This document shows positions 1-26,409 of a DNA stretch of 64,000 nt, one piece after another (positions within the stretch are counted from its first letter, which is position 1; each line of letters opens with the position of its first letter). A model generated the notes under the pieces. That model searched no databases. It saw only the letters and a list, made by a program, of their open reading frames with translations, and was not told the DNA's origin. Origin of the DNA: Candidatus Saccharimonadales bacterium. Its GTDB lineage: Bacteria > Patescibacteriota > Saccharimonadia > Saccharimonadales > JBBQYC01. Position numbers and translations under genes: made by a program. Location of the stretch: assembly GCA_038209015.1 (NCBI GenBank), contig JBBQYC010000001.1, positions 18,974 to 82,973 of the forward strand. Direction: 5' to 3'.

Positions 1-1376
1 ACATACCCTGTCCAAGCATGTTAGTGAAAATTATAAGGAACTGACATATCTGATAAGAAAATGCTATAAAAATGGTCGCTAAAAATAAACGAGGAAACGC
101 TTTCTTAACTGTGTAGGCGCTTACAAACTCAAAACCAAGAGCTGTGCTGATAACCATGATAAGCATGACTGGGATGAGAATAATATACGCAAGGTTACGC
201 AAGCGACCCCAAGTGCCTGCTATGCCATCATTTGCAATGTAAGCATCCGGGGTGTTAAGGAGGTCGGATATTTTATTGTCTAAGAATACAAATGTACTGT
301 CCGCAAAACGTAGAAATGGACAAAGCAACCACGATAGGTCACTTGTTTCGCACGACTGTTGCTCACCCTCCCCGACCGCATTACTACTACCAGTAATTGC
401 CGCAGCTGTTGCCTCGGCAGATTCCGAATCGGCGCCTGCGACTGTTACTTCGACCGTCTGGTTTGAGCCATCCTTTTTAATATCAAACGTCCCAGTGTTA
501 GTGCCAAGGGCATCTATTTGGGCCTGCGTAGCCTGTATATATAAGTCGCCGGTACAATCCTCGCTGCGGAACTGGTTTCGGCTTTCGCACCATACGAATG
601 TTCGTGTGTCTTGTTCGCTCGTAGAAACGTGCTGGATGGCACCGTCGTCAGTAACGTTATAGGTAATATTAAAATTACTAAGACTACCCTGCTGTAGATC
701 TTTGTAGACCTTAACGCCTTTTAGACCGGCGCTAATACTATCAAAACATTCCCAAATCGGTCCCTTGTCATCATTGTTTTTGTTATGGAAAACAAAGTTT
801 CCATTCTGCGACGTACAGGTTACCTGTTCAACCTCATCCTCTTCGATACCCATAACCAGCTCTATATTTGCCAAAAGTCCTTGTAGGTCGCTAGCGGACA
901 CGGCTTTATCATTTCCGCCGAATGCGTCCCCCACCTTACTTCCAAGATCACCACTGAATTCATCTAATACGGATTCATCATTATCATCTCCATTGCTGTC
1001 CCCGCGCGCGTAGTTGAAGGTGTTATCGCCGGTGTTGCGGTCATAATATTTTCCGCCTATAGCATCCTGAAATTTAATATCGTCGATTATATACTGCTGA
1101 TTTGCCCCTGTTGGACTGGCACAGTCACCCGCACCAATATAGGTAATTTCAAATACTGCTCGGTTGATAATTTTAATTCGGAAGATACCGTCAGTTTCGT
1201 GATTGTCATTGCTACCAAGATCATTGGTTTGAATCACGCACAAATCATCGAGGTTTTCATCAGCATATACTGTTCTGGATTGTTCAGGTAATGGGATGGC
1301 AGAAAAAAGACTCACAAAAAGCGTGAATGTAAGAAACCACAGGGAGATCCCTGCTTTATTTATTTTGAAACCCATA
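1..1376 (-). CDS. large secreted/integral membrane protein, N-terminal 458 codons only (start ATG at 1376..1374, continues past window start); signal peptide, ~400-aa ectodomain, then multi-TM region; possible T4SS channel (VirB6/TrbL-like) component
   Basis: Hand translation of minus strand from ATG 1376 down to position 1 gives 458 sense codons without a stop (MGFKINKAGISLWFLTFTLFVSLFSAIPLPEQ...). It is absent from the ORF track only because no stop lies in the window. Hydrophobic helices sit at the window-proximal end (NLAYIILIPVMLIMVISTALGF; LFLATIFIAFSYQICQFLIIF). Confidence 0.7.
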
Positions 1377-1463
1377 AAATTATTCTAACATTACTAGTGA
1401 AGAAACTGCTAACGCTGGTCAAACATACATTTAATACCTATAATATGATATACCTTTATATAT

Positions 1464-2150
1464 ATGACTAAAAAACAAACATTATTTCTCGGCTTGACTC
1501 AACTAGTCCTACTAGCAGCTACTTTTTTGGTATTTTCTGCACCAAAAGTAAGTGCACAAACACCACCACAATGCCAGGGTGCGGGTTCAGCGGATGCAAT
1601 GGAAGCATGTTCGCGAAATGCTATTGAAGACGAGTGTGGAGAAGCCCCAAGTGCTGGGACGCCTATTCGGCAAGCTGAGGCTTATGAAGAGTGTAGGCGC
1701 AGTACTACTTCAGGTGATAGCGATAATGATGGTATCTCCGACGAAATTGAGGAAATATGTGGAACGCCCACGAATGACTCCCAGTCCCAAGGCTTCGATG
1801 CATGTCGACAACAAGTTGAAGCAGGTACCCACCCATCACAACAACAATCAACAGGAGGATCGAACGAAACTGTTCAAAGTACTGGCAGTCTAGACGGCGA
1901 CTGCAAGGATATTAATGACTGCAAGATAATCGGATATCTGCGTGACTTCATCAATCTCTTATCCGTAGTTGTAGGTATAGTCGTTGCGATAATGATAGTG
2001 GTGGGCGGTATTCAGTACAGCGCTTCACGGGATAATCCACAGGCAACGGCAGCGGCGAAACAACGGGTCACAAACGCTGTCATAGCACTTGTTGTCTACG
2101 TGTTTATATTCGCTATACTTGAATACTTGGTCCCTGGAGGTGTGTTCTAA
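1464..2150 (+). CDS. VirB2/TrbC-like pilin-type protein A: signal peptide, 10-Cys acidic ectodomain, C-terminal helix-loop-helix module
   Basis: N-terminal signal peptide (MTKKQTLFLGLTQLVLLAATFLVFSAPKVSA). C-terminal LLSVVVGIVVAIMIVVGGIQY-loop-VTNAVIALVVYVFIFAIL, shared with the five downstream paralogs. Confidence 0.6.
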   Translation: MTKKQTLFLGLTQLVLLAATFLVFSAPKVSAQTPPQCQGAGSADAMEACSRNAIEDECGEAPSAGTPIRQAEAYEECRRSTTSGDSDNDGISDEIEEICGTPTNDSQSQGFDACRQQVEAGTHPSQQQSTGGSNETVQSTGSLDGDCKDINDCKIIGYLRDFINLLSVVVGIVVAIMIVVGGIQYSASRDNPQATAAAKQRVTNAVIALVVYVFIFAILEYLVPGGVF

Positions 2151-2536
2151 TGCTACAGACTCTTACTCGATTTGCAGCCACCTGTCAGGATCTCGGCGGC
2201 AGCTTACCAGATAGAATATATGGTATCCCAACATGGTATAAGTATTTGCCATCGGAAGATGTTGCGGGTAAATGCTCACCTGTCATAGATTTGAGTGGCG
2301 ATGGTCAAGCGTCGGTGATTGCAATATTGTTAGCCGTATTCGATATACTGATATTTTTTGCAGGTCTCATTGCTGTAGGGTACGTTATATTCGGGGCTAT
2401 TCAGTTTATGGTGAGCCAGGGTGAGCCAGATAAAATCAAGAACGCTCGAAACACTGTTATGAATGCGCTCGTCGGACTTGTGCTTGTTCTGGTCTCAACC
2501 GTCGTCGTTAATCTAATAGGAAACACTCTTACATGA
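2150..2536 (+). CDS. VirB2/TrbC-like two-TM paralog B (no signal peptide)
   Basis: Overlaps the upstream stop (TAATG). Two hydrophobic helices separated by SQGEPDKIKNARNTV, the same loop motif as the paralogs. Confidence 0.55.
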   Translation: MLQTLTRFAATCQDLGGSLPDRIYGIPTWYKYLPSEDVAGKCSPVIDLSGDGQASVIAILLAVFDILIFFAGLIAVGYVIFGAIQFMVSQGEPDKIKNARNTVMNALVGLVLVLVSTVVVNLIGNTLT

Positions 2537-2820
2537 AATTTTTAGCGCAGTTTACAAAAGACGATTTCCCATCCATTCCAGACGCACCCGACCCAACCAA
2601 AGGCTTACCTCTAGCTGACGCTATGCAACTCATCTTTGGAATAATTGGAGTGATTGCAGTCGTGATGATAATGGTCGGCGGCTTTAAGTACATTGCATCA
2701 CAGGGTAATCCGCAAGAAACAGCCAAAGCAAAAAATACTATTTTGTACGCGGTCATAGGTCTTGTGCTCGCAGCCAGCGCATTTACCATTGTTTCGTTCA
2801 TAGTGGAGACAGCCAAATGA
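2533..2820 (+). CDS. VirB2/TrbC-like two-TM paralog C (short, no signal peptide)
   Basis: ATGA overlap with B. Contains IGVIAVVMIMVGGFKYIASQGNPQETAKAKNTILYAVIGLVLAASAF. Confidence 0.55.
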   Translation: MKFLAQFTKDDFPSIPDAPDPTKGLPLADAMQLIFGIIGVIAVVMIMVGGFKYIASQGNPQETAKAKNTILYAVIGLVLAASAFTIVSFIVETAK

Positions 2821-3230
2821 TTCGGTTAGCGCTAATGGCGACATTTATGGCATTATTTTGCGTGTTTCAGTTTGCGACTGTACCTGCTGCGGCAGAAGTG
2901 CTTGATCCTGCATGCGACATTACCACCACTGACGAGAACGGTAAGCAGATAAAGTCCCCTTTGTGTCCCGATGAAAACGAAACCATAGATGATAATTCCC
3001 TGTTCGGCCCAGGCGGTATAGCCACGCGACTCGTTAACCTGTTCTCATACATTATTGCTATTGCTGGCGTGATAGTAATCATCATCGGTGGATTCAAATA
3101 TGTTATATCGTCGGGCGACCAACAAAACATAAATAATGCCAAAAACACCATTTTGTACGCAGTCATAGGACTGGCAATAGCCGCTGTTGCCCAATTATTT
3201 GTCAGATTTGTGTTGTATAATATTAAGTAA
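2817..3230 (+). CDS. VirB2/TrbC-like pilin-type protein D (signal peptide + small Cys ectodomain)
   Basis: ATGA overlap with C. Signal peptide MIRLALMATFMALFCVFQFATVPAAA. Contains IAIAGVIVIIIGGFKYVISSGDQQNINNAKNTILYAVIGLAIAAVAQL. Confidence 0.6.
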   Translation: MIRLALMATFMALFCVFQFATVPAAAEVLDPACDITTTDENGKQIKSPLCPDENETIDDNSLFGPGGIATRLVNLFSYIIAIAGVIVIIIGGFKYVISSGDQQNINNAKNTILYAVIGLAIAAVAQLFVRFVLYNIK

Positions 3231-3250
3231 GCAATTAAAAGGATATCTAT

Positions 3251-3673
3251 ATGCAAAAAATAAAACAGTTTTTATCAACATCATTGAACGCGAGCCTAAT
3301 AGCTATGCTGCTTGCTTTTGGAGTTATCGCAATGGCAAGCGTGCCAGTAAATGCGCAAGCCGATGAAATATGTAAAGGTGTCGGTTACGTTGACAATGAC
3401 CCTAATAAAACCGAATGTGACGCAAGTGCGGACGGTACGGTTCGGAAAGTCGTCAAACTAGTCATAAATGTGTTTAGCTGGATAGTTGGAATTATCTCTG
3501 TCATCATGATTATCATCGGTGGACTTAAGTACATTACTTCGACTGGTGAAAGCAGCAATATTAATAGTGCCAAGAACACGATACTCTATGCCATCATCGG
3601 TTTAGTAGTGGTTGCCTTAGCTCAGATTATTGTTCTATTCGTTCTTGGTAGCGTGGACAGTCAGACTTCATAG
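3251..3673 (+). CDS. VirB2/TrbC-like pilin-type protein E
   Basis: Signal peptide ending VNAQA. Contains IISVIMIIIGGLKYITSTGESSNINSAKNTILYAIIGLVVVALAQI. Preceded by RBS-like aaagga. Confidence 0.6.
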   Translation: MQKIKQFLSTSLNASLIAMLLAFGVIAMASVPVNAQADEICKGVGYVDNDPNKTECDASADGTVRKVVKLVINVFSWIVGIISVIMIIIGGLKYITSTGESSNINSAKNTILYAIIGLVVVALAQIIVLFVLGSVDSQTS

Positions 3674-3745
3674 CGGATAGCTAAGAGTTGTCATCAGAGT
3701 TCTATCTGTGATATAACACCTATAAATCAATAAGAAAGGTTTTCA

Positions 3746-4162
3746 ATGTTAAAACGAATTAAATCAACGCTCACCAGCTTGTTGCTCAGTTCTATGTTCT
3801 TCCTACCAATGGCCGTACCAGCGACTGTTGCCGCCCAGGATCTCGTAGACTGTGAAGGAATTCAGGGCTGTTTAACTGAAGGTGCAGATAAAACTGGCGA
3901 TGCCACAGCTGACGAGGCTGGCACGCAGGTAAACAATATTGTGCGTTTAGTCATTAACACCTTTTCATGGGTTGTTGGAATCATCTCTGTCATCATGATT
4001 ATCATCGGTGGACTTAAGTACATTACCTCCGGTGGTGAAGGTAGCAATATCTCCGCAGCCAAAAACACGATACTCTACGCCATCATCGGTTTAGTCATTG
4101 TGGCACTTGCTCAGATTGTAGTTCAGTTCGTACTAAAGAACGTTACTGATTCCTCTGTCTAA
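3746..4162 (+). CDS. VirB2/TrbC-like pilin-type protein F (recent duplicate of E in the C-terminal half)
   Basis: Signal peptide ending TVAAQ. C-terminal module nearly identical to E at both protein and nucleotide level. Confidence 0.6.
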   Translation: MLKRIKSTLTSLLLSSMFFLPMAVPATVAAQDLVDCEGIQGCLTEGADKTGDATADEAGTQVNNIVRLVINTFSWVVGIISVIMIIIGGLKYITSGGEGSNISAAKNTILYAIIGLVIVALAQIVVQFVLKNVTDSSV

Positions 4163-4934: not shown

Positions 4935-5603
4935 ATGCAATTACTCGATAGGATCTTATCGATAGTGGCACCGCTAGAGTGTATGGGGTGCTCGAGTGAG
5001 GAAGGCGTACTCTGCACAATGTGCTTGAATACCCTGCCTCTTGTTCCTAGCCGGTGCTATCGCTGCCAGGCTGCCACCAATAACTTTGAAGTCTGTGGAA
5101 GCTGCCGTAAATACACCAAGCTCGGACATGTCTGGGTTGCAACTGTATATGAAGGGCTTATTAAAGAAGTAATCCATGCCTACAAATATGAGCGAGTACT
5201 ATCGGCGCATAAACAGCTGAGTATGATGCTAGTTGATGCGCTGCCACTAGTCAGTGATATGATTGTGGTGTCTGTGCCAACCGCAACATCAAGGGTAAGA
5301 CAGCGAGGCTACGATCACACTTTGCTGATAGCCAAGGATGTAGCTTTCCAAAAAAACTTGATTAGGAAGCGACCGATGGTTCGGTTTTCTCAATCACGTC
5401 AGGTTGGATCAAGCAGAAAGGCACGTTTTGAACAGTTATCGAACAGTTTTTTTGTCACCCGCCCCCAGGATATTATCGGCAAAAAAGTACTAATTATTGA
5501 CGATGTCATAACAACGGGCGCAACCGTCGAAACCATTGCCGCTCTGTTGAAATCTACAGGAGCGAAAGAAGTGAATGCATTGGTTTGTTCTCAAAAACTC
5601 TGA
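4935..5603 (+). CDS. comF: ComF family protein (competence protein F-like phosphoribosyltransferase)
   Basis: N-terminal Cys4 cluster (CxxC...CxxC) and a C-terminal PRTase motif (VLIIDDVITTGATV). Confidence 0.7.
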   Translation: MQLLDRILSIVAPLECMGCSSEEGVLCTMCLNTLPLVPSRCYRCQAATNNFEVCGSCRKYTKLGHVWVATVYEGLIKEVIHAYKYERVLSAHKQLSMMLVDALPLVSDMIVVSVPTATSRVRQRGYDHTLLIAKDVAFQKNLIRKRPMVRFSQSRQVGSSRKARFEQLSNSFFVTRPQDIIGKKVLIIDDVITTGATVETIAALLKSTGAKEVNALVCSQKL

Positions 5604-11045: not shown

Positions 11046-12635
11046 TTAGTCACTGTTATGTGCGTTCAGTAGAGACGGCAGGTAGTGGTTTCGCCGTCCA
11101 ACCGTCACCGAAGCATCTGGATGAACAGTGAGAATCTGATATCCAAGCAGGTCGTGCGTTTGTTTATGGACGCTCAGTAGCACCATAGATGCATCGTCGT
11201 AAAGCGGACCAAACGTTGGCATATCACCACCTGCTCCACCGGAGCTAGCGCCGACTATTAGCAGACCTGCAGTATTAGTAGACGAAGTAATGTCTTCAAC
11301 TTGGTGTTTATGCATATGCCCAGACAATGCTACCTTGGCGCATCCGCGTTGTAGTGCGGTGTAGGCAGCATCGTGATCGTGAACTAAAAGGAAATCAACC
11401 GGCTCTGGTTGTGCGCAAGCTTCATGTGCCAGACGTTCGCCAATATCTACAACAGATTCTTCGCCAACTTGACGGATATTTACTCCAAACTGACTACGAC
11501 GTGGATCGCTATCACCGAGTATCGTTATTCCTTGTAGGGTGGTAGGCTGGCCGGTGAGCACGGAGAATCCTGCGCGGCTCATCTGCGGTCCTGTCACTGC
11601 TAGGTCATCATGGTTACCTAGGCTGGTCGCTTTATCGATTCCCTCAAGCGCTTTTCCTAGCGGCCCAATACACAACTCTTCATATTCCGTACCACTTGCG
11701 GTTACATCCCCACCATCCAATGCAAAGTCTATGGACTGTTGTTCTGCTACGGTTTCGATGACTCTACTCATCCCCGTATTACAGTGATAATCCGTTATAA
11801 ATAAGCCCGTTACTGATCTGTTTGTCGGCTGGAATGTCGGATGATCCTCAAGAGCTGCCTGCATATTGACGGCGGCTTGCTTATAAAATTGATCGTTACT
11901 GTTGATGTAGTCGAGTACTTCTACACCGGCTGTATTGACGGCCAGCTGCATCCACCTCCCTTTCACGAGCGCTCCTTCGAGCGGCGTATTCTCAAATAGT
12001 TCACTCACAGGTATGAACCCATCAGGTAGCTGTATTTCATGTGAAGCAGTTGGCATCTGTATTCCCAGCAAGCTAACGACGGCAGCGGCGGGAGCTAGTT
12101 TTCTCACTGCCGGCATTACGCGGGTTTCATACACTTGCCTTCGCGCATCACGACCCACAAATGTATACAGGGCAACGGTACCAGCCATAGCTATGAGTCC
12201 ATTGCGCGCTGCTTGCTTCCCTGTCTCTTTCGCAGTGTTCTGTAGATCGTCTTCTATGGTGGTGAGCATACGGGCATAGGATTGGAGTTCTTCAGGGCTG
12301 AGTTCAGATGGGTCAGAACCCAGTGATACATCAGCTGGCATTTCTTTGATGGTTATATGTGCCCCTACCCCGAACATATTTTTTTGAGGGAAGGCTATGG
12401 CGCCTGGCATACCCACGTCAAATGTCGCCAAACTATCGTACGAGACAGTGGTTACCGCTCGGTGACCACCTATGGTTGTTTCTGTGCCGATATGCTCTGC
12501 TGACAGTAGCGCCGACCCAACGCCGATGCCAAGAAGTGCTGCACTTTTTGCGATCTTAGGTAGAAGCCGCCGTTCCGGGGCGAATTGTAGTGTGTGTTGC
12601 GGCGCGACCGCTACCTCGGGGTTCGCCATATCCAT
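11046..12635 (-). CDS. membrane-associated calcineurin-like metallophosphoesterase
   Basis: Metallophosphoesterase motifs (LFITDYHCN; GGD; GNHD; GHMH). N-terminal hydrophobic segments. Confidence 0.65.
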   Translation of the reverse strand: MDMANPEVAVAPQHTLQFAPERRLLPKIAKSAALLGIGVGSALLSAEHIGTETTIGGHRAVTTVSYDSLATFDVGMPGAIAFPQKNMFGVGAHITIKEMPADVSLGSDPSELSPEELQSYARMLTTIEDDLQNTAKETGKQAARNGLIAMAGTVALYTFVGRDARRQVYETRVMPAVRKLAPAAAVVSLLGIQMPTASHEIQLPDGFIPVSELFENTPLEGALVKGRWMQLAVNTAGVEVLDYINSNDQFYKQAAVNMQAALEDHPTFQPTNRSVTGLFITDYHCNTGMSRVIETVAEQQSIDFALDGGDVTASGTEYEELCIGPLGKALEGIDKATSLGNHDDLAVTGPQMSRAGFSVLTGQPTTLQGITILGDSDPRRSQFGVNIRQVGEESVVDIGERLAHEACAQPEPVDFLLVHDHDAAYTALQRGCAKVALSGHMHKHQVEDITSSTNTAGLLIVGASSGGAGGDMPTFGPLYDDASMVLLSVHKQTHDLLGYQILTVHPDASVTVGRRNHYLPSLLNAHNSD

Positions 12636-17661: not shown

Positions 17662-18723
17662 TTACATAGTTAGGTTTGGCGCTATATCCAGCTTATAGGG
17701 GTCTGCAGTGACTTGGTTGAGGTTCATATGAAAACAGCCCAGCGTGGCTACCATGGCGCCGTTATCCGTCATTAGTTTGGCATCCTGATACTCGACTGGA
17801 ATTGGAATCCGTTCGGCCAGTTGTCGACGCAGTTCGGGGCTGGCGGCTACGCCACCGCCAATTACTACAGATGTAGGCTGGAATTCTTCATATGCCTGGA
17901 ATGTCTTATCTACCACGGTTTCAACTGCTATTCGTTGGAAGCTGGCGGCAATATCGGCCTTCTGAGCCTCAGAGAGGCGTTCTGCCAGCATATGGGATGC
18001 GAATTCGTGTGTTTCACCGACTTCACTCTGAGCAAGCCTTAGAACGGCTGTTTTTAAGCCGCTGAAACTATAGTTATATTTATCCTTGAGTTTTGCTTTG
18101 GGCAGGTCGTATTTGTAAGCGTCTCCTTCGGCAGCTTTTTTACCAATATTCGGACCACCAGGGTAGGGAAGACCAAGTATCTTGGCGACTTTATCAAACG
18201 CTTCACCTATGGCATCATCTTGAGTTTGTCCCAAGAGGCGATAGTCAAAGTGGTCACGCCATAGCACTAACTGGCTGTGCCCGCCGCTAACAATGAGCCC
18301 AAGCATAGGAAATGTCGGCTGTTTTTGACGCATAACGTACTGCTGAAGCGGGCTTTCAATCAGGAAGTTAGCGTAGATATGGGCTTCGACGTGATTGATA
18401 GCGTACAGGGGCTTTTGTTTAGTAATGGCCAGGGTCCGCGCAGTTAATACTCCGACCAACAGGGAACCGCCAAGCCCTGCGCCGTAGGTTACGGCAATCC
18501 CATCAATATCTTTCCACGTGCATTGTGCCGTCTTTAACGCCTGGTCTATGACCGGTATGATGGCTTCAATATGACTTCTGGCGGCAATCTCCGGCACGAC
18601 GCCACCGTACGCGGCGTGCAAATCCATGCTAGACAATACTTCGTTACTGAGTAGCCGCTCGCCGTCTTCCACGACTGCGGCGGCTGTTTCGTCACAGCTT
18701 GTTTCTATCCCAAGAATTTTCAT
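17662..18723 (-). CDS. tsaD: tRNA N6-adenosine threonylcarbamoyltransferase TsaD (Kae1/Gcp family)
   Basis: MKILGIETSCDETAAAV N-terminus and ASKH-fold motifs (GVVPEIAARSH; VSGGH). Confidence 0.9.
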   Translation of the reverse strand: MKILGIETSCDETAAAVVEDGERLLSNEVLSSMDLHAAYGGVVPEIAARSHIEAIIPVIDQALKTAQCTWKDIDGIAVTYGAGLGGSLLVGVLTARTLAITKQKPLYAINHVEAHIYANFLIESPLQQYVMRQKQPTFPMLGLIVSGGHSQLVLWRDHFDYRLLGQTQDDAIGEAFDKVAKILGLPYPGGPNIGKKAAEGDAYKYDLPKAKLKDKYNYSFSGLKTAVLRLAQSEVGETHEFASHMLAERLSEAQKADIAASFQRIAVETVVDKTFQAYEEFQPTSVVIGGGVAASPELRRQLAERIPIPVEYQDAKLMTDNGAMVATLGCFHMNLNQVTADPYKLDIAPNLTM

Positions 18724-18747
18724 TACAAACCAAGTATACTGAGGGCA

Positions 18748-20055
18748 ATGAATTTTAGAAAATTATTGAAGTTTTTTATTCCGCGCGGATTGTTCAAGCG
18801 CATAGAGCCTGCCGGCCATCTTGCAGAGGCGGTGTTGTTCAATCTCATTAATGGATTTCCGGCCCGCGGGATGAAGGTTATTGGTGTGACCGGTACCAAT
18901 GGTAAAACAACCACTAGCTACATGATCTATACTATGTTAAATACCGCCGGGTATAAAGTAGGACTTAACACCACCGTTGCCTATGGGGTAGATGGTGATA
19001 TCCGCCCGCAGCTGCACCATATGACCAATGTTAGTGCGCCAGAACTTATGAAACGGCTGAAGTGGTTTAAGCGCCAAGGTGTTGAATGGCTGGTGCTTGA
19101 AACAACCAGTCATGCACTGGCTCAGAACCGGGTGTGGGGTGTTCCGTACAGCGTAGCCGTACTCACAAATCTGACCCACGAACACCTCAGTTATCATGGT
19201 ACTTTCGAACGTTACCGCGACGCGAAGCTCAAATTATTCAAGCTTACCGCTAAAAACAAGCGCGGGTTACAAACCGGCATTGTCAACCAGGAAGACGAAA
19301 ACGCGGATATATTTGCCCAAGCGGTCCCAAACAGTGTGAGGTACGGCAGTGGCGGCGATATCATAGCGAAAGACGTTCAGTTACAGCCAAACGGATTCAG
19401 TTATACAGCTGTCGCCGGTGAAGATTCATATAATATAACCAGTTCGTTGCCTGGTAGTTTCAATGTTAGTAATACCTTGGCGGCGGTTGGCGTTGGGCGC
19501 ACACTGGGCTTTAGCAAAGAGCAGATAGAGCAGGGAATAGCGGCACTGGAATCGGTTGAGGGACGCATGACTCGGGTAAACGAAGGCCAGGACTTTGATG
19601 TAATCGTTGACTATGCGCACAGTCCCGACAGCTTCCAAAAGTTATTCAGTGATGTCCGGCCTGTTGTGAAGGGAAAAATCATTGCTGTCTTTGGGTCGCT
19701 GGGTGGTGGTGACGTTGCAAAACGACCAGAACAGGGGAGAATCGCTGGTGAGTTTGCCGACGAAGTTATCCTTACCCAGGAGGATGATCGCCAGGAAGAC
19801 CCGACAAAGATTATGCAGGATATTGCTCAAGGAGCTGCGGCTACCGGTATGCAGCGGGATGCAAACCTGTTTTTTATTCATGACCGTACAGAAGCAATTA
19901 ACTTCGCTGTAAAACGCGCCAAAACGGGCGATATGGTATTGCTGCTGGGCAAGGGGCACGAGAAAACACAGGAAGATGCAACGGGAGAACACCCCTGGGA
20001 TGAAATAGCCACCGCCCGTACCGCACTCCTCGAGTTGACAAAACACTCAAAATAA
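18748..20055 (+). CDS. murE: Mur ligase family protein, MurE-like (UDP-MurNAc-tripeptide synthetase)
   Basis: P-loop VIGVTGTNGKTTT, DYAHSPDSF motif, and a C-terminal Mur ligase domain. Short N-terminal domain. Confidence 0.7.
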   Translation: MNFRKLLKFFIPRGLFKRIEPAGHLAEAVLFNLINGFPARGMKVIGVTGTNGKTTTSYMIYTMLNTAGYKVGLNTTVAYGVDGDIRPQLHHMTNVSAPELMKRLKWFKRQGVEWLVLETTSHALAQNRVWGVPYSVAVLTNLTHEHLSYHGTFERYRDAKLKLFKLTAKNKRGLQTGIVNQEDENADIFAQAVPNSVRYGSGGDIIAKDVQLQPNGFSYTAVAGEDSYNITSSLPGSFNVSNTLAAVGVGRTLGFSKEQIEQGIAALESVEGRMTRVNEGQDFDVIVDYAHSPDSFQKLFSDVRPVVKGKIIAVFGSLGGGDVAKRPEQGRIAGEFADEVILTQEDDRQEDPTKIMQDIAQGAAATGMQRDANLFFIHDRTEAINFAVKRAKTGDMVLLLGKGHEKTQEDATGEHPWDEIATARTALLELTKHSK

Positions 20056-20084
20056 TATAGAATAGTTTAATTCTAAAGGAGATT

Positions 20085-20867
20085 TTGATGAGTCAACGAG
20101 AACCATCTCAAGAAGTAATGCGTTCACGCGTACAGGAGTTAGAGCTGTTCCAAGCTTCTCTGACGAGTGTAGTAGACGAAGTAGTAGATCAGCTTGCTAT
20201 TCGCGATTTTGATATTGAAAAAGATTTCAGAGTGCTTTGGGCGGAAGGTAATAATGCCCGAGAAGTGCCTGTCAAACACCAGACATACCGTCAACGCACA
20301 CTTAGTCATATGACAAAAGTACTGCCGGCTATGCGCAAAGCTATAGGTGAAGGTCTTATTACTAATCCAAACGACGCTGGTGACCTTGCTGGTACCCTAA
20401 TGGCATTCGAGGGCAGCCCCTCAGCTTGTTTGCGCTATCTACGCGGTACTTCAAACAGCTTGGTCAGTGAACCTATTCGCCCCCGTGAACTCATCAATAT
20501 CCTTGGCGCATACCAAGCAATACTTGATGTTACGCCTACCGAAGGTGAAGCTAAACTGCCGAAACCAACACTAGCTAGCGCTATCTCATCTGCGCAGGAC
20601 TGGGGCTTTGACCTCATGCATCCGTTAACTGAAGCAGATATAGACAATGTTCACGCATCGATTGATGAGTACCAGTTCGTCGAAACGGTATCGCGTGCTA
20701 GCAGGGAAGGTCAACCGTACCAAACGATACACTTGATAGATGCAACTTCACAGCGCCGGAATCCGATTGGTTTTACTGCTGTTTCCTCTGATGATATGCG
20801 ACGAGACAGTACTCTTGAAGACTACATGCTCAGGGATGTGCTTCAAGATGACATGGCTACCAGCTAG
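20085..20867 (+). CDS. hypothetical cytoplasmic protein (operon gene 1 of 5)
   Basis: ORF with RBS aaggag 8 nt upstream. No recognisable domain. Confidence 0.55.
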   Translation: MMSQREPSQEVMRSRVQELELFQASLTSVVDEVVDQLAIRDFDIEKDFRVLWAEGNNAREVPVKHQTYRQRTLSHMTKVLPAMRKAIGEGLITNPNDAGDLAGTLMAFEGSPSACLRYLRGTSNSLVSEPIRPRELINILGAYQAILDVTPTEGEAKLPKPTLASAISSAQDWGFDLMHPLTEADIDNVHASIDEYQFVETVSRASREGQPYQTIHLIDATSQRRNPIGFTAVSSDDMRRDSTLEDYMLRDVLQDDMATS

Positions 20868-20875
20868 GAGTCGCT

Positions 20876-22150
20876 ATGCCGAAAAATTTTGACGAACTCA
20901 TGGGCGAACAAGCTCGTAACCCATTCGAAACTAGCGGGCTGACGCCAGAAGCCGTTAAGGCGCTGCACGAATCCGGTGATCCGGAGCTGCTGCAAACCGC
21001 GGTAAACGGGGTTATGCGGGCGCTGTCCCGAGGTATGCACCCAGATGCCACGGGCAAGCAAGCCGGTGATTTTTTTATGCAACTGGTTGAATCAAACAAG
21101 CTTATCCAGGGATATGACACAGGAGCAGTCCAGCAGTTAGCCACCGATTACACTAGAAAAAAACGCGGTACGAAAGCGGCCAAGCCGGAGGTTGTACAAG
21201 TCCATCAGGACCGCAGCCATGAGTTACTTCTAAACATTGCAGGGCAGCCACTTGGTGAATTAGGCCCAAGTTTTAACCCGAACACCGGTATTGAGTTCAC
21301 GAGCCTTCAGAAGGAGTTCATAAATATACCTAATCGACTATTAATGCACCGCACCGATGAAGATCGTTGGCAACTCAGTGAGTACCACTATGCGGAAATT
21401 GAAGAGCGTGAACTCGATGAAAACGGGAAGCTTCAGCGTGATAATTCGCTTGGTCATGAAATGGTCGGCAATATGGATTGGCAACGGTTAGTTACTGCAC
21501 GTCATGTAAAAAATTTGCAACGCGGGTTTATGTATATCAATAGGGAAACAAACCAAAAATTAGCAATAGATGCTGTACATGTATCAGGCATGGTGCACCG
21601 GTTGGGCGACAGCCTTGTGCTGTTTGATGAAAGCGGTAATAAAGTTGATACGTACCCTAATGACCTTACTGAGACCGATGACGCTACTGACGATAGCTTC
21701 TATCGCTTGTCACTAACGGTAGCTGGTACCAATGAGGACGATTTAACCGTACAGACTGCGACGGCGCGACGGTATATGTACCGGGATGACGAACCTGAAA
21801 TATACGATTTCCGACTACTCGGCACAACTGATGAAGTATTTGCACAACAAGTCGTAGCTGATTTGCGCAGATCGGTCCGTGGTGACGAGCCGCGCCGTTT
21901 CAATGAACAGGTAACGATTAGTGAATTAAATGTCGGTATCTCGCGTTCTAACCAGCTTTCCAGCCTCGGATTTTCACTCCAATCCGAACAAATAAAAAAA
22001 ATAGGCGAGCATTTTACGCCCGCGATTGTTCCTGAAAATCATTTAGTGGTGTCAGACGGTGAGAAACTATATTTGTTAGGGGTGGCTCAGCGGCTCTACA
22101 AAAATATGTTTGCGAACCACCCACTGTCCGTACCGCTCTCCGGTTATTGA
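20876..22150 (+). CDS. hypothetical cytoplasmic protein, 424 aa (operon gene 2 of 5)
   Basis: ORF 9 nt after gene 1. No recognisable domain. Confidence 0.55.
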   Translation: MPKNFDELMGEQARNPFETSGLTPEAVKALHESGDPELLQTAVNGVMRALSRGMHPDATGKQAGDFFMQLVESNKLIQGYDTGAVQQLATDYTRKKRGTKAAKPEVVQVHQDRSHELLLNIAGQPLGELGPSFNPNTGIEFTSLQKEFINIPNRLLMHRTDEDRWQLSEYHYAEIEERELDENGKLQRDNSLGHEMVGNMDWQRLVTARHVKNLQRGFMYINRETNQKLAIDAVHVSGMVHRLGDSLVLFDESGNKVDTYPNDLTETDDATDDSFYRLSLTVAGTNEDDLTVQTATARRYMYRDDEPEIYDFRLLGTTDEVFAQQVVADLRRSVRGDEPRRFNEQVTISELNVGISRSNQLSSLGFSLQSEQIKKIGEHFTPAIVPENHLVVSDGEKLYLLGVAQRLYKNMFANHPLSVPLSGY

Positions 22151-22196
22151 CAAAATACACATAAAAATGTTATAATCTTCCATAATAAGGAGTGTT

Positions 22197-22841
22197 ATGT
22201 CTGGACTGAGTTTAGAGCAGCTGGAACGAGTACGTGATGAGGCCAATGGTATAGTCACTAAATATAATGTCCTCAAGGACGACCCCTTGCACGCCCTGGA
22301 AACCGGAGAAGGTAATTGTTTCGCCAAGGCTATTTTGGCCGCGGGGATTATTTCGGTGCGTCACAGCCTCGGTGATGATGTGCCGGCCGGCGTATTTAGT
22401 GCCCGACTTCATGCCACAGAAAAACCGTCTTCTTTCGGAATGCCGCCCAAGGCAAACCGTGGACATTACACCTTACTCGTTCCGGATAGTGAACGACTTG
22501 CTCGTGATGACGAATGGGGTATTTTTAGTCTCGATTTCGGCATAGACGGCCGTGAAGATTCCGGCGATATCATGGACTATAACGAAGTCGGTGACTGTGT
22601 GTACTACGCCGGGCTATCGAATAAAATTAAAGCAACTCCACTTTTTGCTGAACAAAATCATATGTTTGTAACTGGCTGGAAGGAAAGCGCTAACACCTAC
22701 CTCAAACTCATAGCCGACGGTCCGCGCGATATGAATGATCCAATCCCGGAGCTGCCGTTTAATCCCGCACTCCAAGACCAGGTGAATTATGATCAGATGC
22801 TGGAAATGTTGGCGCAGAAACCACACCTAGAACTTTTATGA
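22197..22841 (+). CDS. hypothetical protein with possible transglutaminase-like/papain-like Cys-His-Asp arrangement (operon gene 3 of 5)
   Basis: GEGNCFAKAILAAGI (G-x-C-F-A), downstream RGHYTL and DFGID. RBS aaggag upstream. Confidence 0.5.
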   Translation: MSGLSLEQLERVRDEANGIVTKYNVLKDDPLHALETGEGNCFAKAILAAGIISVRHSLGDDVPAGVFSARLHATEKPSSFGMPPKANRGHYTLLVPDSERLARDDEWGIFSLDFGIDGREDSGDIMDYNEVGDCVYYAGLSNKIKATPLFAEQNHMFVTGWKESANTYLKLIADGPRDMNDPIPELPFNPALQDQVNYDQMLEMLAQKPHLELL

Positions 22842-23221
22842 ACACATTCCCGCTAGGATATACTGGTCGTATGAGTGAAGAAACTCCAGAAACGTATTCG
22901 TTCGGGCACGGCAACGCTATTGTAGAGCCAAAACAGTTGCAGCTGGATTTGGGAATCACTCCAGAAGACCAGCAGGAACAAAACTACGCTCGCCAATCTA
23001 TGAAAAAAGAAATGGGAGGCTTTGCATTAACAGCTTATTTGCAATCGCTTGATTCGAATCTCACTGGTGATCTTTTAGGATTAGTAGAGGGAGAAACACG
23101 CTTTATTAAAAGTAATGAACAGCGTCTCAATGATATTATTGAGGCTGCAAAACTTACCGGCAAGAGAGAGCTTATCACTGAGCTGTTACATAGGTATGAG
23201 CAGACACGAGACTTGCAATAA
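22838..23221 (+). CDS. hypothetical protein, 127 aa (operon gene 4 of 5)
   Basis: ATGA overlap with gene 3. Confidence 0.5.
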   Translation: MNTFPLGYTGRMSEETPETYSFGHGNAIVEPKQLQLDLGITPEDQQEQNYARQSMKKEMGGFALTAYLQSLDSNLTGDLLGLVEGETRFIKSNEQRLNDIIEAAKLTGKRELITELLHRYEQTRDLQ

Positions 23222-23250
23222 TAGCAACAATGTGCTAATATACTATAGTT

Positions 23251-24033
23251 ATGTTACAAACAAAAATTGATAATCCCTACGAAACACTTGAACTCTTTAT
23301 TACAGATTTTCATGAAAGCCAGCACTCGCCAGACGTCACCGTAGAAGATAAAAGTCAGTTATTAAACACTATCGGTCGCTTTGGGCTGCAGCATGGCCTC
23401 CCGATTGATTACATCGCGCATCGATTAGAGATGCCTACGGATAGTTTGTTGCAAGAGCTTGAAGTTGATGAAGCGCTAAGCAAAGCCTTTCATAAGACGA
23501 CCACAGAGGGTTTGAATATGGGTGGTAGTCCTGAAAAAACCGATACTTCCGTCTATACGACTGATCCTGAAGCGCTTGGTTGGTTAAACGGTAAGCCTGC
23601 CGTGAAGTTGCCGGCAGTCCTTGTTGAAACCGAAGATCTAACCTACCGCTTGGTGGATTTAGTTGGTCTTCACCGCGTGCCGAAGAAGCTCAGGCAAAAA
23701 TTACTTGATCAGCATGAATACGAAAGTCTACATGAAAAACTAACTCATGAAGCGATTCCGAAGCTCTATAAGGATGTAAAGACACTTGATGGTAAGCTGC
23801 GTCCCGTTGCTATGGGCAATCGTACAAAAAAAGAAGCAGAAGCCGTTGCCAGTTTCAAATGTAAGCTTCCAGCTTACAAAGTTGATGCCCACGGTACAAA
23901 TAATAGGGCAATCATCGTGTTTTTAGGTAATAGTAGCGATAAGGAGCCGGTTCCTCAGTTTGGGCTTGCGGCGTTATATGATCATGATGACGATGAGGCA
24001 ATTCACTCAGCGTTATTTGCTAAGCAGAAATAA
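23251..24033 (+). CDS. hypothetical protein, 260 aa (operon gene 5 of 5)
   Basis: ORF 30 nt after gene 4. No recognisable domain. Confidence 0.5.
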   Translation: MLQTKIDNPYETLELFITDFHESQHSPDVTVEDKSQLLNTIGRFGLQHGLPIDYIAHRLEMPTDSLLQELEVDEALSKAFHKTTTEGLNMGGSPEKTDTSVYTTDPEALGWLNGKPAVKLPAVLVETEDLTYRLVDLVGLHRVPKKLRQKLLDQHEYESLHEKLTHEAIPKLYKDVKTLDGKLRPVAMGNRTKKEAEAVASFKCKLPAYKVDAHGTNNRAIIVFLGNSSDKEPVPQFGLAALYDHDDDEAIHSALFAKQK

Positions 24034-24034
24034 T

Positions 24035-24892
24035 CTAAATTGTTAGGGTGGTGCAGCGTATAAAGCCGCCGCCTTTTTGCAGCTCGACTACATCAGGGTG
24101 TATAAGCGTGTACCCATGGTTCTCAAGCTGCGCAGCAAGGAGCGGGGCATGTGAACTCATAATAACTGTTTCTGAGGTTGAAACGAGGTTGCAGGCCAGT
24201 CCTTGCATGGCCTCTTCAAGGGTGACTTCTATAGTATCTAACGCCAGGGCGCGGACTTTTTCCTGGCTTTCCTGCGTAAAAGCTTCCGGGCACCAAGCGA
24301 TTAAGTCATCTGAGATAATCGAAACCGCTAAGTCGATGTCATAGAAAAAGCTATCCGGCCAGTTGGTTACTTTGTTGATAACCGCTTTTCCAGTGGTATC
24401 AAGTTGCGGAATGGCCTGTAGACTAATTACTTCTAATCCCGTCTGTTCTGCTAAAAAGGGGTGTACTTCGGCATCGGTGCGGTAAGTACTACCGCACAGT
24501 AGATATGGCCCGCAGGGCAGTGCATCGCCTTGGCCGCTGAAGCGTAGATTGCCTGGTACCTGGACAATTTCTTTACCAAGAGTTCGCAATACGTCTTGAG
24601 CATACGACTGTTCTGCTTGCCGCGGACCTGGCAAGTTAGACATAATTGCCTTGTTCCCGACGCAGAGCGCCCAGTTGGCGGTATACACTCCGTCTTGGCA
24701 GTTATCAGGAGCGTCAACTTTATGTATTTCTACCCCTGCGCTACGAAGCGCAGCTTGTATGTTAGTGTGATCTGTTACGGCGCGATCAATATCGACTGCA
24801 ACTGATGCATCCATGTAGGCATTAATTGCGAAACCGTCATTAAAATATTCGGCTCCGCTCATCAATACACTACTGTTCATTTTTTGTGGCAT
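24035..24892 (-). CDS. pentein-fold amidinotransferase/DDAH/arginine-deiminase superfamily enzyme (short, 285 aa)
   Basis: C-terminal GGGFIRCTTL, the catalytic Cys motif of guanidino-group-modifying enzymes. Length is DDAH-like rather than ArcA-like. Confidence 0.6.
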   Translation of the reverse strand: MPQKMNSSVLMSGAEYFNDGFAINAYMDASVAVDIDRAVTDHTNIQAALRSAGVEIHKVDAPDNCQDGVYTANWALCVGNKAIMSNLPGPRQAEQSYAQDVLRTLGKEIVQVPGNLRFSGQGDALPCGPYLLCGSTYRTDAEVHPFLAEQTGLEVISLQAIPQLDTTGKAVINKVTNWPDSFFYDIDLAVSIISDDLIAWCPEAFTQESQEKVRALALDTIEVTLEEAMQGLACNLVSTSETVIMSSHAPLLAAQLENHGYTLIHPDVVELQKGGGFIRCTTLTI

Positions 24893-24937
24893 TAGCGTCT
24901 AGTATACCAGGCAAAAACCATTGACAAAACAGCTTGG

Positions 24938-25516
24938 TTGTGGTATTTTATATCGACTATGGAGAAAGATCCGTTTCGGTGGGCTGCAAACGCACCCTTA
25001 CTACCGAAGAAATACTGTATTGCTGATTATTACCATGCGTCCAGCAAAGAGCATCGGTTGATTGTTGATGCACGGCAAGATTATAAAACAGATCAATACA
25101 CTCGGGCCAAGCTTGAGAACAAAGGAATGGTTCTGCGATTGGCAGGGGTACAGCATCCTTCAGGAAGTATGGAATACATAATTCCTGATGGGGTAACTTC
25201 ACTGGGGGCATTTTTAAATTCAACCTCTGCTGATCAAAACAGGGCCTGGAAACGACGCTACATGTTCAATCGTATAACTGAATTTCTGAGTGAATTCACT
25301 GCAATGGGACTCGGCCTCAGCGCAGAACCGTCTGCCAGCCGCCACAATATAGGCCAAAATCTGTTAAGCGATCCGGTATTGTTACCGGCGCTTCCAGTGA
25401 GCATAGAGGAGATGGATAATCACCAAGCTCATATTCAGAATCAAGCATTTTATGTGCAGATTCAGCAGGACATAATAGAGGTTGCGCCGCCCGACGAGCG
25501 TGATTTCCCCTTCTAG
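24938..25516 (+). CDS. hypothetical protein (192 aa), probably co-transcribed with the kinase-like gene
   Basis: ORF 9 nt upstream of 25525. Confidence 0.45.
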   Translation: MWYFISTMEKDPFRWAANAPLLPKKYCIADYYHASSKEHRLIVDARQDYKTDQYTRAKLENKGMVLRLAGVQHPSGSMEYIIPDGVTSLGAFLNSTSADQNRAWKRRYMFNRITEFLSEFTAMGLGLSAEPSASRHNIGQNLLSDPVLLPALPVSIEEMDNHQAHIQNQAFYVQIQQDIIEVAPPDERDFPF

Positions 25517-25524
25517 GATTTACT

Positions 25525-26340
25525 ATGGGCTACGAACACACGGAATCATTACCCAGCTTTGAAATTGCTGAGTCTTTGCAGATGACGCCACACCTTGGCG
25601 CCACCGCCCAGCTTGGCGACTCAGCTCATAAAGTCTGCGTTGCAGAGGATGATGACTATAACTTATGGGTGATTAAACCAGCATCACATGCAAAAGCTCG
25701 CAATGAAGTTTCTATGCTTTCAGCGGTACAGAAGGCGGGTATACCGACGTTGGTATTTGACCCGGGCAAAGAACCAAGGTTGGTTCCCTATGACGCTGAC
25801 ACAACAGCTATAGTTATGCAGTTTAGGCGACTTCAGCCACTGACTCGTCTCGATTGGGGCGCTAATGTCTATGATCAACCGACGCACGACGTTTTAGACA
25901 TGCACACCATTCGATCGATGCATGCGATAGCTAAGATGCATAAGCGCGGCATGTACCACGGTGACTTCCAGGCGAAGAATACCGGTCTTATGACTATGAA
26001 TAATGGTTACAAGCGACAAATCTGTTTTGATTTCGAGGGAGCAGGCCGGCTTGGCAAATGGACCGAAGAAGATACTGAGCACCGTGTCATGGCAGATGAT
26101 ATTGTCCAGTTTTTCAAATCCATTCTTATTAATCGCTACCTAGAAGAGCTACCTGCCGAGCTGAAGATGCAGCGGCTTGGATCATTCGCCTTACTGTACG
26201 CACAGAAACTGTCCAACAGGAATGAGCAAGCCGTCGAAGCGGCTACAAATATTGCGGTTGAAATCGAATTACAGACTGAAGATTGGGTATCCCAACCGAG
26301 TTCTATAAAACGCGCCCGCCAACGATTTAAAAATTCTTGA
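25525..26340 (+). CDS. protein-kinase-like fold protein (Kdo/RIO/aminoglycoside-phosphotransferase-like)
   Basis: VIKPAS...ARNEV (beta3 Lys / alphaC Glu). HGDFQAKN (catalytic loop HxD...N). CFDFEGAG (DFG-like). Confidence 0.55.
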   Translation: MGYEHTESLPSFEIAESLQMTPHLGATAQLGDSAHKVCVAEDDDYNLWVIKPASHAKARNEVSMLSAVQKAGIPTLVFDPGKEPRLVPYDADTTAIVMQFRRLQPLTRLDWGANVYDQPTHDVLDMHTIRSMHAIAKMHKRGMYHGDFQAKNTGLMTMNNGYKRQICFDFEGAGRLGKWTEEDTEHRVMADDIVQFFKSILINRYLEELPAELKMQRLGSFALLYAQKLSNRNEQAVEAATNIAVEIELQTEDWVSQPSSIKRARQRFKNS

Positions 26341-26347
26341 CGGCAAG

Positions 26348-26374
26348 TTAGCACTCCATTATATTGAGTGCTAG
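26348..26374 (+). promoter_or_regulatory. CIRCE element (HrcA operator) upstream of groES
   Basis: TTAGCACTC-CATTATATT-GAGTGCTAG. 17/18 match to TTAGCACTC-N9-GAGTGCTAA. Confidence 0.8.
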
Positions 26375-26409
26375 AGATTTGGCACTCGTTTGCGAGAAGT
26401 GCCAAATCT
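26375..26409 (+). promoter_or_regulatory. perfect 12-bp-arm palindrome (AGATTTGGCACT-N11-AGTGCCAAATCT) between CIRCE and the groES RBS
   Basis: Arms are exact reverse complements. The function (second operator or 5'UTR hairpin) is unknown. Confidence 0.5.

Follow-up and report, generated by a model that had tools for sequence, protein, structure and literature searches.

We analyzed five consecutive forward-strand genes in a 64,000-nt stretch of contig JBBQYC010000001.1 (the window), for which the original prediction had proposed a compact operon of cytoplasmic proteins without recognizable domains, candidates for lineage-specific machinery or injected effectors. Sequence comparison and structure modelling lead us to conclude that gene 2 begins with a true, though strongly diverged, J domain, a module that recruits the Hsp70 chaperone DnaK. 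We think it probable, rather than settled, that gene 2 is a class C J-domain co-chaperone with gene 1 as its dedicated partner or client, and that genes 3-5 form a separate unit. The genes, and the two domains predicted for gene 2, are:

20088..20867, + strand: gene 1, 259 aa when started at the 20088 ATG, with an alternative TTG at 20085
20876..22150, + strand: gene 2, 424 aa
20915..21160, + strand: cryptic J domain of gene 2, residues ~14-95
21275..22120, + strand: C-terminal beta-rich domain of gene 2, residues ~134-415
22197..22841, + strand: gene 3, 214 aa
22838..23221, + strand: gene 4, 127 aa, acidic
23251..24033, + strand: gene 5, 260 aa

The coordinates of the open reading frames (ORFs) bear out the strand, lengths and tight packing described earlier, with gaps of +8, +46, -4 and +29 nt from gene 1 to gene 5. 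At its full extent the gene 1 ORF spans 20085-20867 (260 aa), and its start is most likely the ATG at 20088 (259 aa), matching the public annotation. With codon frequencies taken from ten of the window's housekeeping genes, we obtained scores of 0.20-0.28 bits per codon for genes 1-5 in frame, compared with 0.20-0.42 for the housekeeping genes, and negative scores in all five alternative frames of every one of the five. GC content is unremarkable throughout the block, and all five are real genes with native codon usage. Hydropathy and N-terminus checks also agreed with the earlier description, in that all five proteins lack both hydrophobic segments of transmembrane strength (maximum Kyte-Doolittle value 1.25 over 19-residue windows) and a signal-peptide-like N-terminus. 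The supposed lack of recognizable domains holds for the standard hidden Markov model (HMM) libraries, with no significant match to genes 1-5 in Pfam, NCBIfam, PHROGs or PADLOC, and single-sequence searches of the PDB with genes 2, 3, 4 and 5 gave no match; it does not hold for gene 2 once its family is considered.

Among 5.8 billion proteins, gene 2 matched only itself and one 56%-identical protein; for gene 1 there was likewise one relative only, 71% identical. When 1.84 billion cluster representatives were searched exhaustively (HMMER) with a two-sequence gene 2 profile, a family of 22 clusters emerged (E<=1e-3), all with proteins of 381-427 aa. Only N15, G21, H55, P56, D57 and G316 are invariant in a 23-sequence alignment of this family, and the only polar residues among them are N15 and H55-P56-D57. 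The hallmark of J domains is a conserved His-Pro-Asp (HPD) motif that follows a long basic helix. In the gene 2 family, H55-P56-D57 is kept in 23/23 members, as well as in all 12 locus-encoded copies, and ends the N-terminal consensus NPFE..GL...V.AL...D..AL..A..G..R...RALHPD. R48, on the helix before the motif, is near-invariant (consensus R-x-x-x-R-A-L-H-P-D). Reading the sequences directly with the HPD motifs in register places R48 opposite DnaJ K26, in line with the basic helix II residues (the K26/R27 region) with which DnaJ contacts Hsp70.

Profile comparison points the same way. When the N-terminal alignment was compared with ten textbook J domains using hhalign, positions 5-63 of 77 aligned with the HPDs in register (score 28.1, P=6.9e-5), whereas 60 column-shuffled decoys averaged 9.1 (standard deviation 1.8, maximum 15.8) and the reversed alignment scored 9.3, which puts the match at a z-score of ~10 against the decoys. 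In addition, a profile of the N-terminal 95 residues was run against 177,635 PDB sequences (hmmsearch, E<=10), and 24 of the 33 matches were J domains, all of which span helix II, the HPD and helix III in the correct register. The best of these was the J domain of CbpA (2kqx/3ucs; E=0.006), with Thermus thermophilus DnaJ2 at 0.018 and further matches to DNAJB9, DNAJA1/A3, DNAJB1/B12, dnj-12, DNAJC27, Tim14, E. coli DnaJ and others. The remaining nine comprised uL6, UBL4A and a set of designed or transcription activator-like (TAL) repeat proteins, which accumulate their scores from many weak repeats. Finally, an AlphaFold2 (AF2) model of gene 2 built from the 23-sequence alignment (mean predicted local distance difference test score, pLDDT, of 81; 80-92 across residues 11-90) places helices at residues 36-54, 65-79 and 82-93, corresponding to helices II, III and IV, with the HPD at 55-57 between the first two, and has two short helices (16-19 and 24-32) at the position expected for helix I.

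As a separate observation, gene 2 residues 17-40 (20924-20995; GLTPEAVKAL..GDPELLQT) resemble the TAL-effector repeat LTPEQVVAIAS..GGKQALETV, and TAL effectors reach E=0.0015 with the gene 2 family profile by summing weak repeat matches; this likeness is probably a helix-loop-helix coincidence.

The remainder of the pair is of a different character. In gene 2, a disordered linker (residues 99-110) separates the J domain from the C-terminal domain, in which G316 is the only invariant residue. The gene 1 model consists of a helical bundle (residues 8-195) and a small beta sheet (197-233). Neither the C-terminal domain of gene 2 nor gene 1 matched a known fold or family, and no polar residue is invariant in gene 2 outside the J domain or anywhere in gene 1. 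Because of this lack of invariant polar residues, we read gene 1 and the rest of gene 2 as non-enzymatic; gene 1 is, on its model, a mostly helical protein. We also considered gene 1 as a J-like protein of the Pam16 type and rejected this (hhalign probability 0.1%).

We recovered contigs for nine of the gene 2 family members. Homologues of genes 1 and 2 are adjacent in loci L001, L005, L007, L008, L009/L010, L013 and L014, and occur as fragments in L006 and L011. Wherever upstream sequence exists, a gene of 242-265 aa lies 4-27 nt upstream of the gene 2 homologue, and its product is homologous to gene 1, with HMM E-values of 9e-33 to 3e-42 at the two most distant loci and clear alignments. The identities of the two proteins to the window's copies drop in parallel (74/56, 43/34, 41/26 and 31/26%), as expected from co-inheritance. 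In other words, genes 1 and 2 are, as judged from these comparisons, a rare, conserved, co-inherited two-gene cassette, and this pair, known only from metagenome-derived contigs, fits the earlier suggestion of lineage-specific machinery. No match was found among 185,579 species representatives with gene 2 alone or a 4-sequence gene 2 alignment, nor in a metagenome scan with the gene 1 alignment.

The neighborhoods of the pair are otherwise unrelated among loci: it lies ahead of topA in L007 and of RseP in L014, has RadC/HsdM genes nearby in L005 and both a Pup ligase and a SpoIIE phosphatase nearby in L013, and sits between ybaB and recR in L008. On this last metagenomic contig the pair (359-3435) is inserted exactly at the junction of ybaB and recR, which are normally neighbors in bacteria. 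The phosphatase of L013, of SpoIIE/PP2C type, lies two genes downstream of the pair, and ~7 kb from the pair the same locus has a gene (17692-18726, - strand) for a 344-aa protein in which a canonical DnaJ J domain is fused to a Ser/Thr protein kinase domain.

The window's own neighborhood contains the murE-like gene and the opposite-strand pentein-fold enzyme named in the original prediction, both now identified by profile matches. Upstream lie a MurE-type ligase (TIGR01085, E=1e-116), tsaD and valS; downstream lie a convergent enzyme of the dimethylarginine dimethylaminohydrolase (DDAH)/arginine-dihydrolase type, whose stop codon is 1 nt from that of gene 5, two unknown ORFs, and then groES-groEL. 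In L001, the closest relative, the order is the same (gene 1, gene 2, DDAH-like gene, groES-groEL), and four ORFs unrelated to genes 3-5 stand between gene 2 and the DDAH-like gene. Genes 3-5 are absent from the related loci (L001 and L005 by name), in which genes 1 and 2 are always together, and each of the three is a singleton cluster in a 15-billion-protein collection. We looked for homology among the genes downstream of gene 2 at different loci and rejected it, as they share no similarity. Mapping the five genes across loci therefore upholds a conserved unit for genes 1-2 and not for the block of five, and genes 3-5 occupy what is, on the loci compared, a hypervariable slot flanked by the pair and the DDAH-like gene.

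The arrangement of candidate expression signals, identified by their consensus matches, was as follows:

20035..20063, + strand: promoter-like site TTGACA-17-TAGAAT (11/12), upstream of gene 1 and within the murE 3' end
20076-20082, + strand: ribosome-binding site AAAGGAG, preceding gene 1
22147..22176, + strand: sigma-70 promoter TTGACA-18 nt(TG)-TATAAT, a perfect 12/12 match
22187-22192, + strand: ribosome-binding site AAGGAG, 4 nt ahead of the gene 3 ATG

The 46-nt gap between genes 2 and 3 thus holds a perfect promoter as well as a ribosome-binding site; the TTGACA overlaps the gene 2 stop codon, and the spacer has an extended -10 TG. The five genes had been thought to form probably one transcript, which this promoter makes doubtful, and the sequence evidence favors two units, genes 1-2 and genes 3-4-5. 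The start of gene 4 overlaps the gene 3 stop by 4 nt, which suggests that these two genes are translationally coupled.

We further asked whether the pair resembles a heat-shock locus, by searching for the controlling inverted repeat of chaperone expression (CIRCE, the HrcA operator; pattern TTAGCACTC-N9-GAGTGCTAA). Only two matches occur in the window, in tandem immediately upstream of groES (26348-26405): TTAGCACTC-N9-GAGTGCTAG with 1 mismatch and TTGGCACTC-N9-AAGTGCCAA with 3 mismatches, at a chance expectation of 0.02 per window. One copy is kept upstream of groES in L001, and both in L002/L003. This CIRCE-bearing groESL lies 4 kb downstream of the pair, and no CIRCE was found before gene 1, gene 3, or the gene 1 homologues in other loci. 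Without a CIRCE, the cassette is probably not a general heat-shock chaperone, and it looks like a specialized, constitutive targeting module.

We therefore propose that the block consists of two adjacent transcription units that would differ in age and nature. The first, genes 1-2, would be the conserved, vertically co-inherited cassette. Because the HPD loop is the cassette's only invariant chemistry, we read gene 2 as a DnaK-recruiting co-chaperone: its HPD loop would dock on the cell's Hsp70 and trigger ATP hydrolysis, while its beta-rich C-terminal domain would determine which client is engaged or where the protein acts. Gene 1 would then be a dedicated partner, either a client handed to DnaK or an adaptor or regulator of the J protein, by analogy to IscU-HscB and CbpM-CbpA. 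The second unit, genes 3-5, would be a strain-specific cassette with its own strong promoter in the hypervariable slot, in which gene 3 is possibly a transglutaminase-like cysteine hydrolase and gene 4 would be translationally coupled to it.

J-domain proteins determine where and on what Hsp70 works, and several known systems offer a comparison. Class C J proteins are those with a J domain and without a G/F (glycine/phenylalanine) region, a zinc finger or DnaJ-type C-terminal domains (PMC8215388). Like the E. coli members of this class (DjlA, HscB, DjlB/DjlC), gene 2 has none of these three features and joins an N-terminal HPD-bearing J domain to an unrelated, family-specific domain, the part that confers client or site specificity in this class. 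Unlike them, it has a J domain too divergent for the Pfam model PF00226, with an extra helix between helices I and II, a C-terminal beta-rich domain that matches no solved fold, and a conserved partner gene that is always upstream; it also differs from DjlA/B/C in having no membrane anchor, and from HscB in having no Fe-S context. The CbpA-CbpM system of gamma-proteobacteria is a two-gene operon (PMC8215388) in which a J protein stands beside its own small modulator, much as gene 2 is encoded next to its putative partner. However, CbpA belongs to class B, with C-terminal domains of the DnaJ type, and its ~100-aa partner is encoded downstream by cbpM, whereas gene 1 lies upstream, encodes ~250 aa and is unrelated in sequence. 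Rki of phage RB43 is reported to be an ORFan J-domain protein through which host DnaK is diverted to a single target (PMC3486835); like gene 2, it conceals a J domain within a sequence that is orphan elsewhere, and gene 2 differs in being chromosomal, conserved with a partner across divergent genomes, and without viral relatives.

These comparisons bear on how J proteins are counted, as surveys rely on the Pfam DnaJ model, which misses the gene 2 family entirely. If our assignment is correct, cryptic J proteins exist in uncultivated bacteria and are here tied to a conserved partner gene. For two otherwise unannotated hypothetical genes, this is a concrete hypothesis that is testable with two purified proteins. 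The notion of five genes in one effector operon is corrected as well, in that two of the genes are conserved and three mark a hypervariable slot.

Genes 3-5 may have nothing to do with genes 1-2. They could form a toxin/immunity or defense-type island, with gene 3 as a toxin of papain/transglutaminase fold, gene 4 as its immunity protein and gene 5 as an accessory, which we regard as a possible though rather unlikely explanation. In its favor, the three genes occupy a slot that holds entirely different ORFs in L001, have a strong promoter of their own, include the 4-nt overlap of genes 3 and 4, and are all singletons. Gene 3 also shows a weak match to Pfam Transglut_core (PF01841; E=0.18, 12.6 bits against a cut-off of 23, residues 23-50), in agreement with the earlier remark that it alone weakly resembles a known family. 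Like the transglutaminase-like hydrolases of PF01841, gene 3 has G-x-G-x-C-x-x-F-A around a candidate Cys (C41 in GEGNCFAKA), followed at plausible spacing by a His (H90 in RGHYTLLV) and an Asp in W-G-x-x-x-x-D (D113 in WGIFSLD), the latter two read from the sequence. Gene 3 may therefore be a transglutaminase-like or papain-fold Cys-His-Asp enzyme. Unlike established members, its match is below threshold and covers 28 residues only, and the enzyme assignment rests on that match. Further arguments against an island are the lack of a PADLOC match, the absence of matches to genes 3 and 5 in phages or plasmids (tblastn) and to gene 3 in viral contigs, the fully native codon usage, which gives no sign of recent transfer, and the lack of an integrase, repeats or tRNA at the borders. 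Gene 5 likewise had no match in the metagenome scan. In keeping with our own reading, genes 3-5 would be a strain-specific accessory cassette, possibly an enzyme plus an inhibitor or immunity protein. Gene 5 begins with NPYETLEL, and we considered it as a second J-like protein and rejected this, as it did not match the gene 2 N-terminal profile.

Several results weigh against our reading of the two units. Pfam DnaJ (PF00226) matches 0/23 members of the gene 2 family even at E<=1, a small custom J HMM matches none of them, and BLASTP could not align the N-terminus of gene 2 with the J domain of E. coli DnaJ. Helix 24-32 is an insertion between helices I and II. Remote-homology and structure comparisons diverged for gene 2: hhalign and the helix order of the AF2 model point to a J domain, and Foldseek against the PDB returned no J domain among the 50 matches listed. 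The individual PDB E-values are marginal (0.006-1), so that the case for the J domain rests on the enrichment of J domains among the matches together with the invariant HPD. No DnaK, DnaJ or GrpE gene lies within the 64-kb window. As for the second unit, the junction of genes 2 and 3 has no terminator-like site, and read-through into a five-gene transcript is therefore possible; the singleton status of genes 3-5 comes without a proper search for distant homologues.

With these points in mind, the gene 2 N-terminus might be only J-like, an HPD-bearing helical hairpin that acts without Hsp70, for example in protein-protein or nucleic-acid binding, in which case the pair would be unrelated to chaperones. 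We consider this unlikely. J-like proteins without Hsp70 function (the Pam16/Tim16 class) typically lose the HPD, and an HPD that stays invariant at the helix II/III turn of proteins with 15-25% identity is hard to explain without Hsp70 contact. The 24 independent J-domain chains found in the correct register, as well as the strength of the hhalign match relative to its decoys, also argue for a true J domain.

Starting from the co-chaperone reading, a more far-reaching version can be formulated, in which genes 1-2 are a hitherto unrecognized, lineage-restricted Hsp70-targeting machine, made up of a cryptic J protein with a client-binding domain of new fold and an obligate partner, that harnesses DnaK for some process particular to these small-genome, probably episymbiotic (Patescibacteria-like) bacteria. 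Such a machine could act in the assembly or remodelling of a surface or host-contact structure, and the slot of genes 3-5 would supply strain-specific clients or effectors. We regard this version as improbable.

The original prediction also raised the possibility that all five genes are one operon of secreted or injected effectors, or of their chaperones, for a type IV secretion system (T4SS)-like apparatus. The pilin locus to which it referred is indeed present, as five tandem paralogous T4SS_pilin genes (PF18895, VirB2-like; 128-228 aa) at 1464-4162, and this array, the tight spacing of the five genes, the lack of a terminator-like site between genes 2 and 3, and the acidic, orphan-like nature of all five proteins are compatible with effectors. 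Arrays of T4SS pilins are reported to be typical of Patescibacteria, especially Saccharibacteria and Microgenomates, and the only Patescibacteria strain tested required the T4SS for epibiotic growth (bioRxiv 10.1101/2025.01.22.634366); the array makes such an origin plausible for the window, though it does not prove it. However, the five genes are not co-conserved, a perfect promoter divides genes 2 and 3, the array is 16 kb away beyond the housekeeping genes valS, tsaD and murE, none of the nine related loci has a T4SS gene near the pair, and no secretion signal is known or detectable. We therefore consider injected effectors very unlikely. Nor could the five be assigned together to a known housekeeping complex, gene 2 alone having received a partial assignment.

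We think it very unlikely that these genes are what is left of a phage or another mobile element: phage-encoded J proteins exist, such as Rki of RB43 (PMC3486835), and the L005 pair lies near RadC and HsdM genes, but alignments of genes 1 and 2 matched nothing in 2.9 million viral contigs, PHROGs gave no match, the composition is native, and the pair sits among core genes (ybaB/recR in L008, topA in L007, murE/groESL in the window).

Some further features of the window were recorded. It contains no rRNA gene. A ComF-like phosphoribosyltransferase (4935-5603) follows the pilin array. ORFs of 529 aa (11046-12635) and 638 aa (58078-59994) had no Pfam match at E<=1e-5, and a 634-aa ORF beside the latter (60115-62019) has a weak B_lectin match only. 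Between the DDAH-like gene and groES lie the two unknown ORFs (24938-26340), for which Pfam, NCBIfam, PHROGs and PADLOC gave no significant match. The first, of ~185-192 aa, probably uses the ATG at 24959 as its start codon in place of the TTG at 24938; the second, of 271 aa, carries HGDFQAKN, a weak signature of Kdo/Bud32-type kinases (Pfam Kdo, E=1.9e-5). Both are absent from the syntenic L001, and this region is therefore a second variable slot. In three cases, namely gene 5, the DDAH-like gene and the ORF at 24959, a -10-like hexamer (TATACT/TATTTT) lies only 6-10 nt before the ATG and there is no Shine-Dalgarno sequence (24892-24960 and 23225-23253), which suggests leaderless transcripts. 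The MurE-type ligase (18748-20055; 435 aa) aligns from position 72 of the murE model, without the Mur ligase N-terminal domain, and there is no space to extend it upstream, because tsaD ends at 18723 on the opposite strand.

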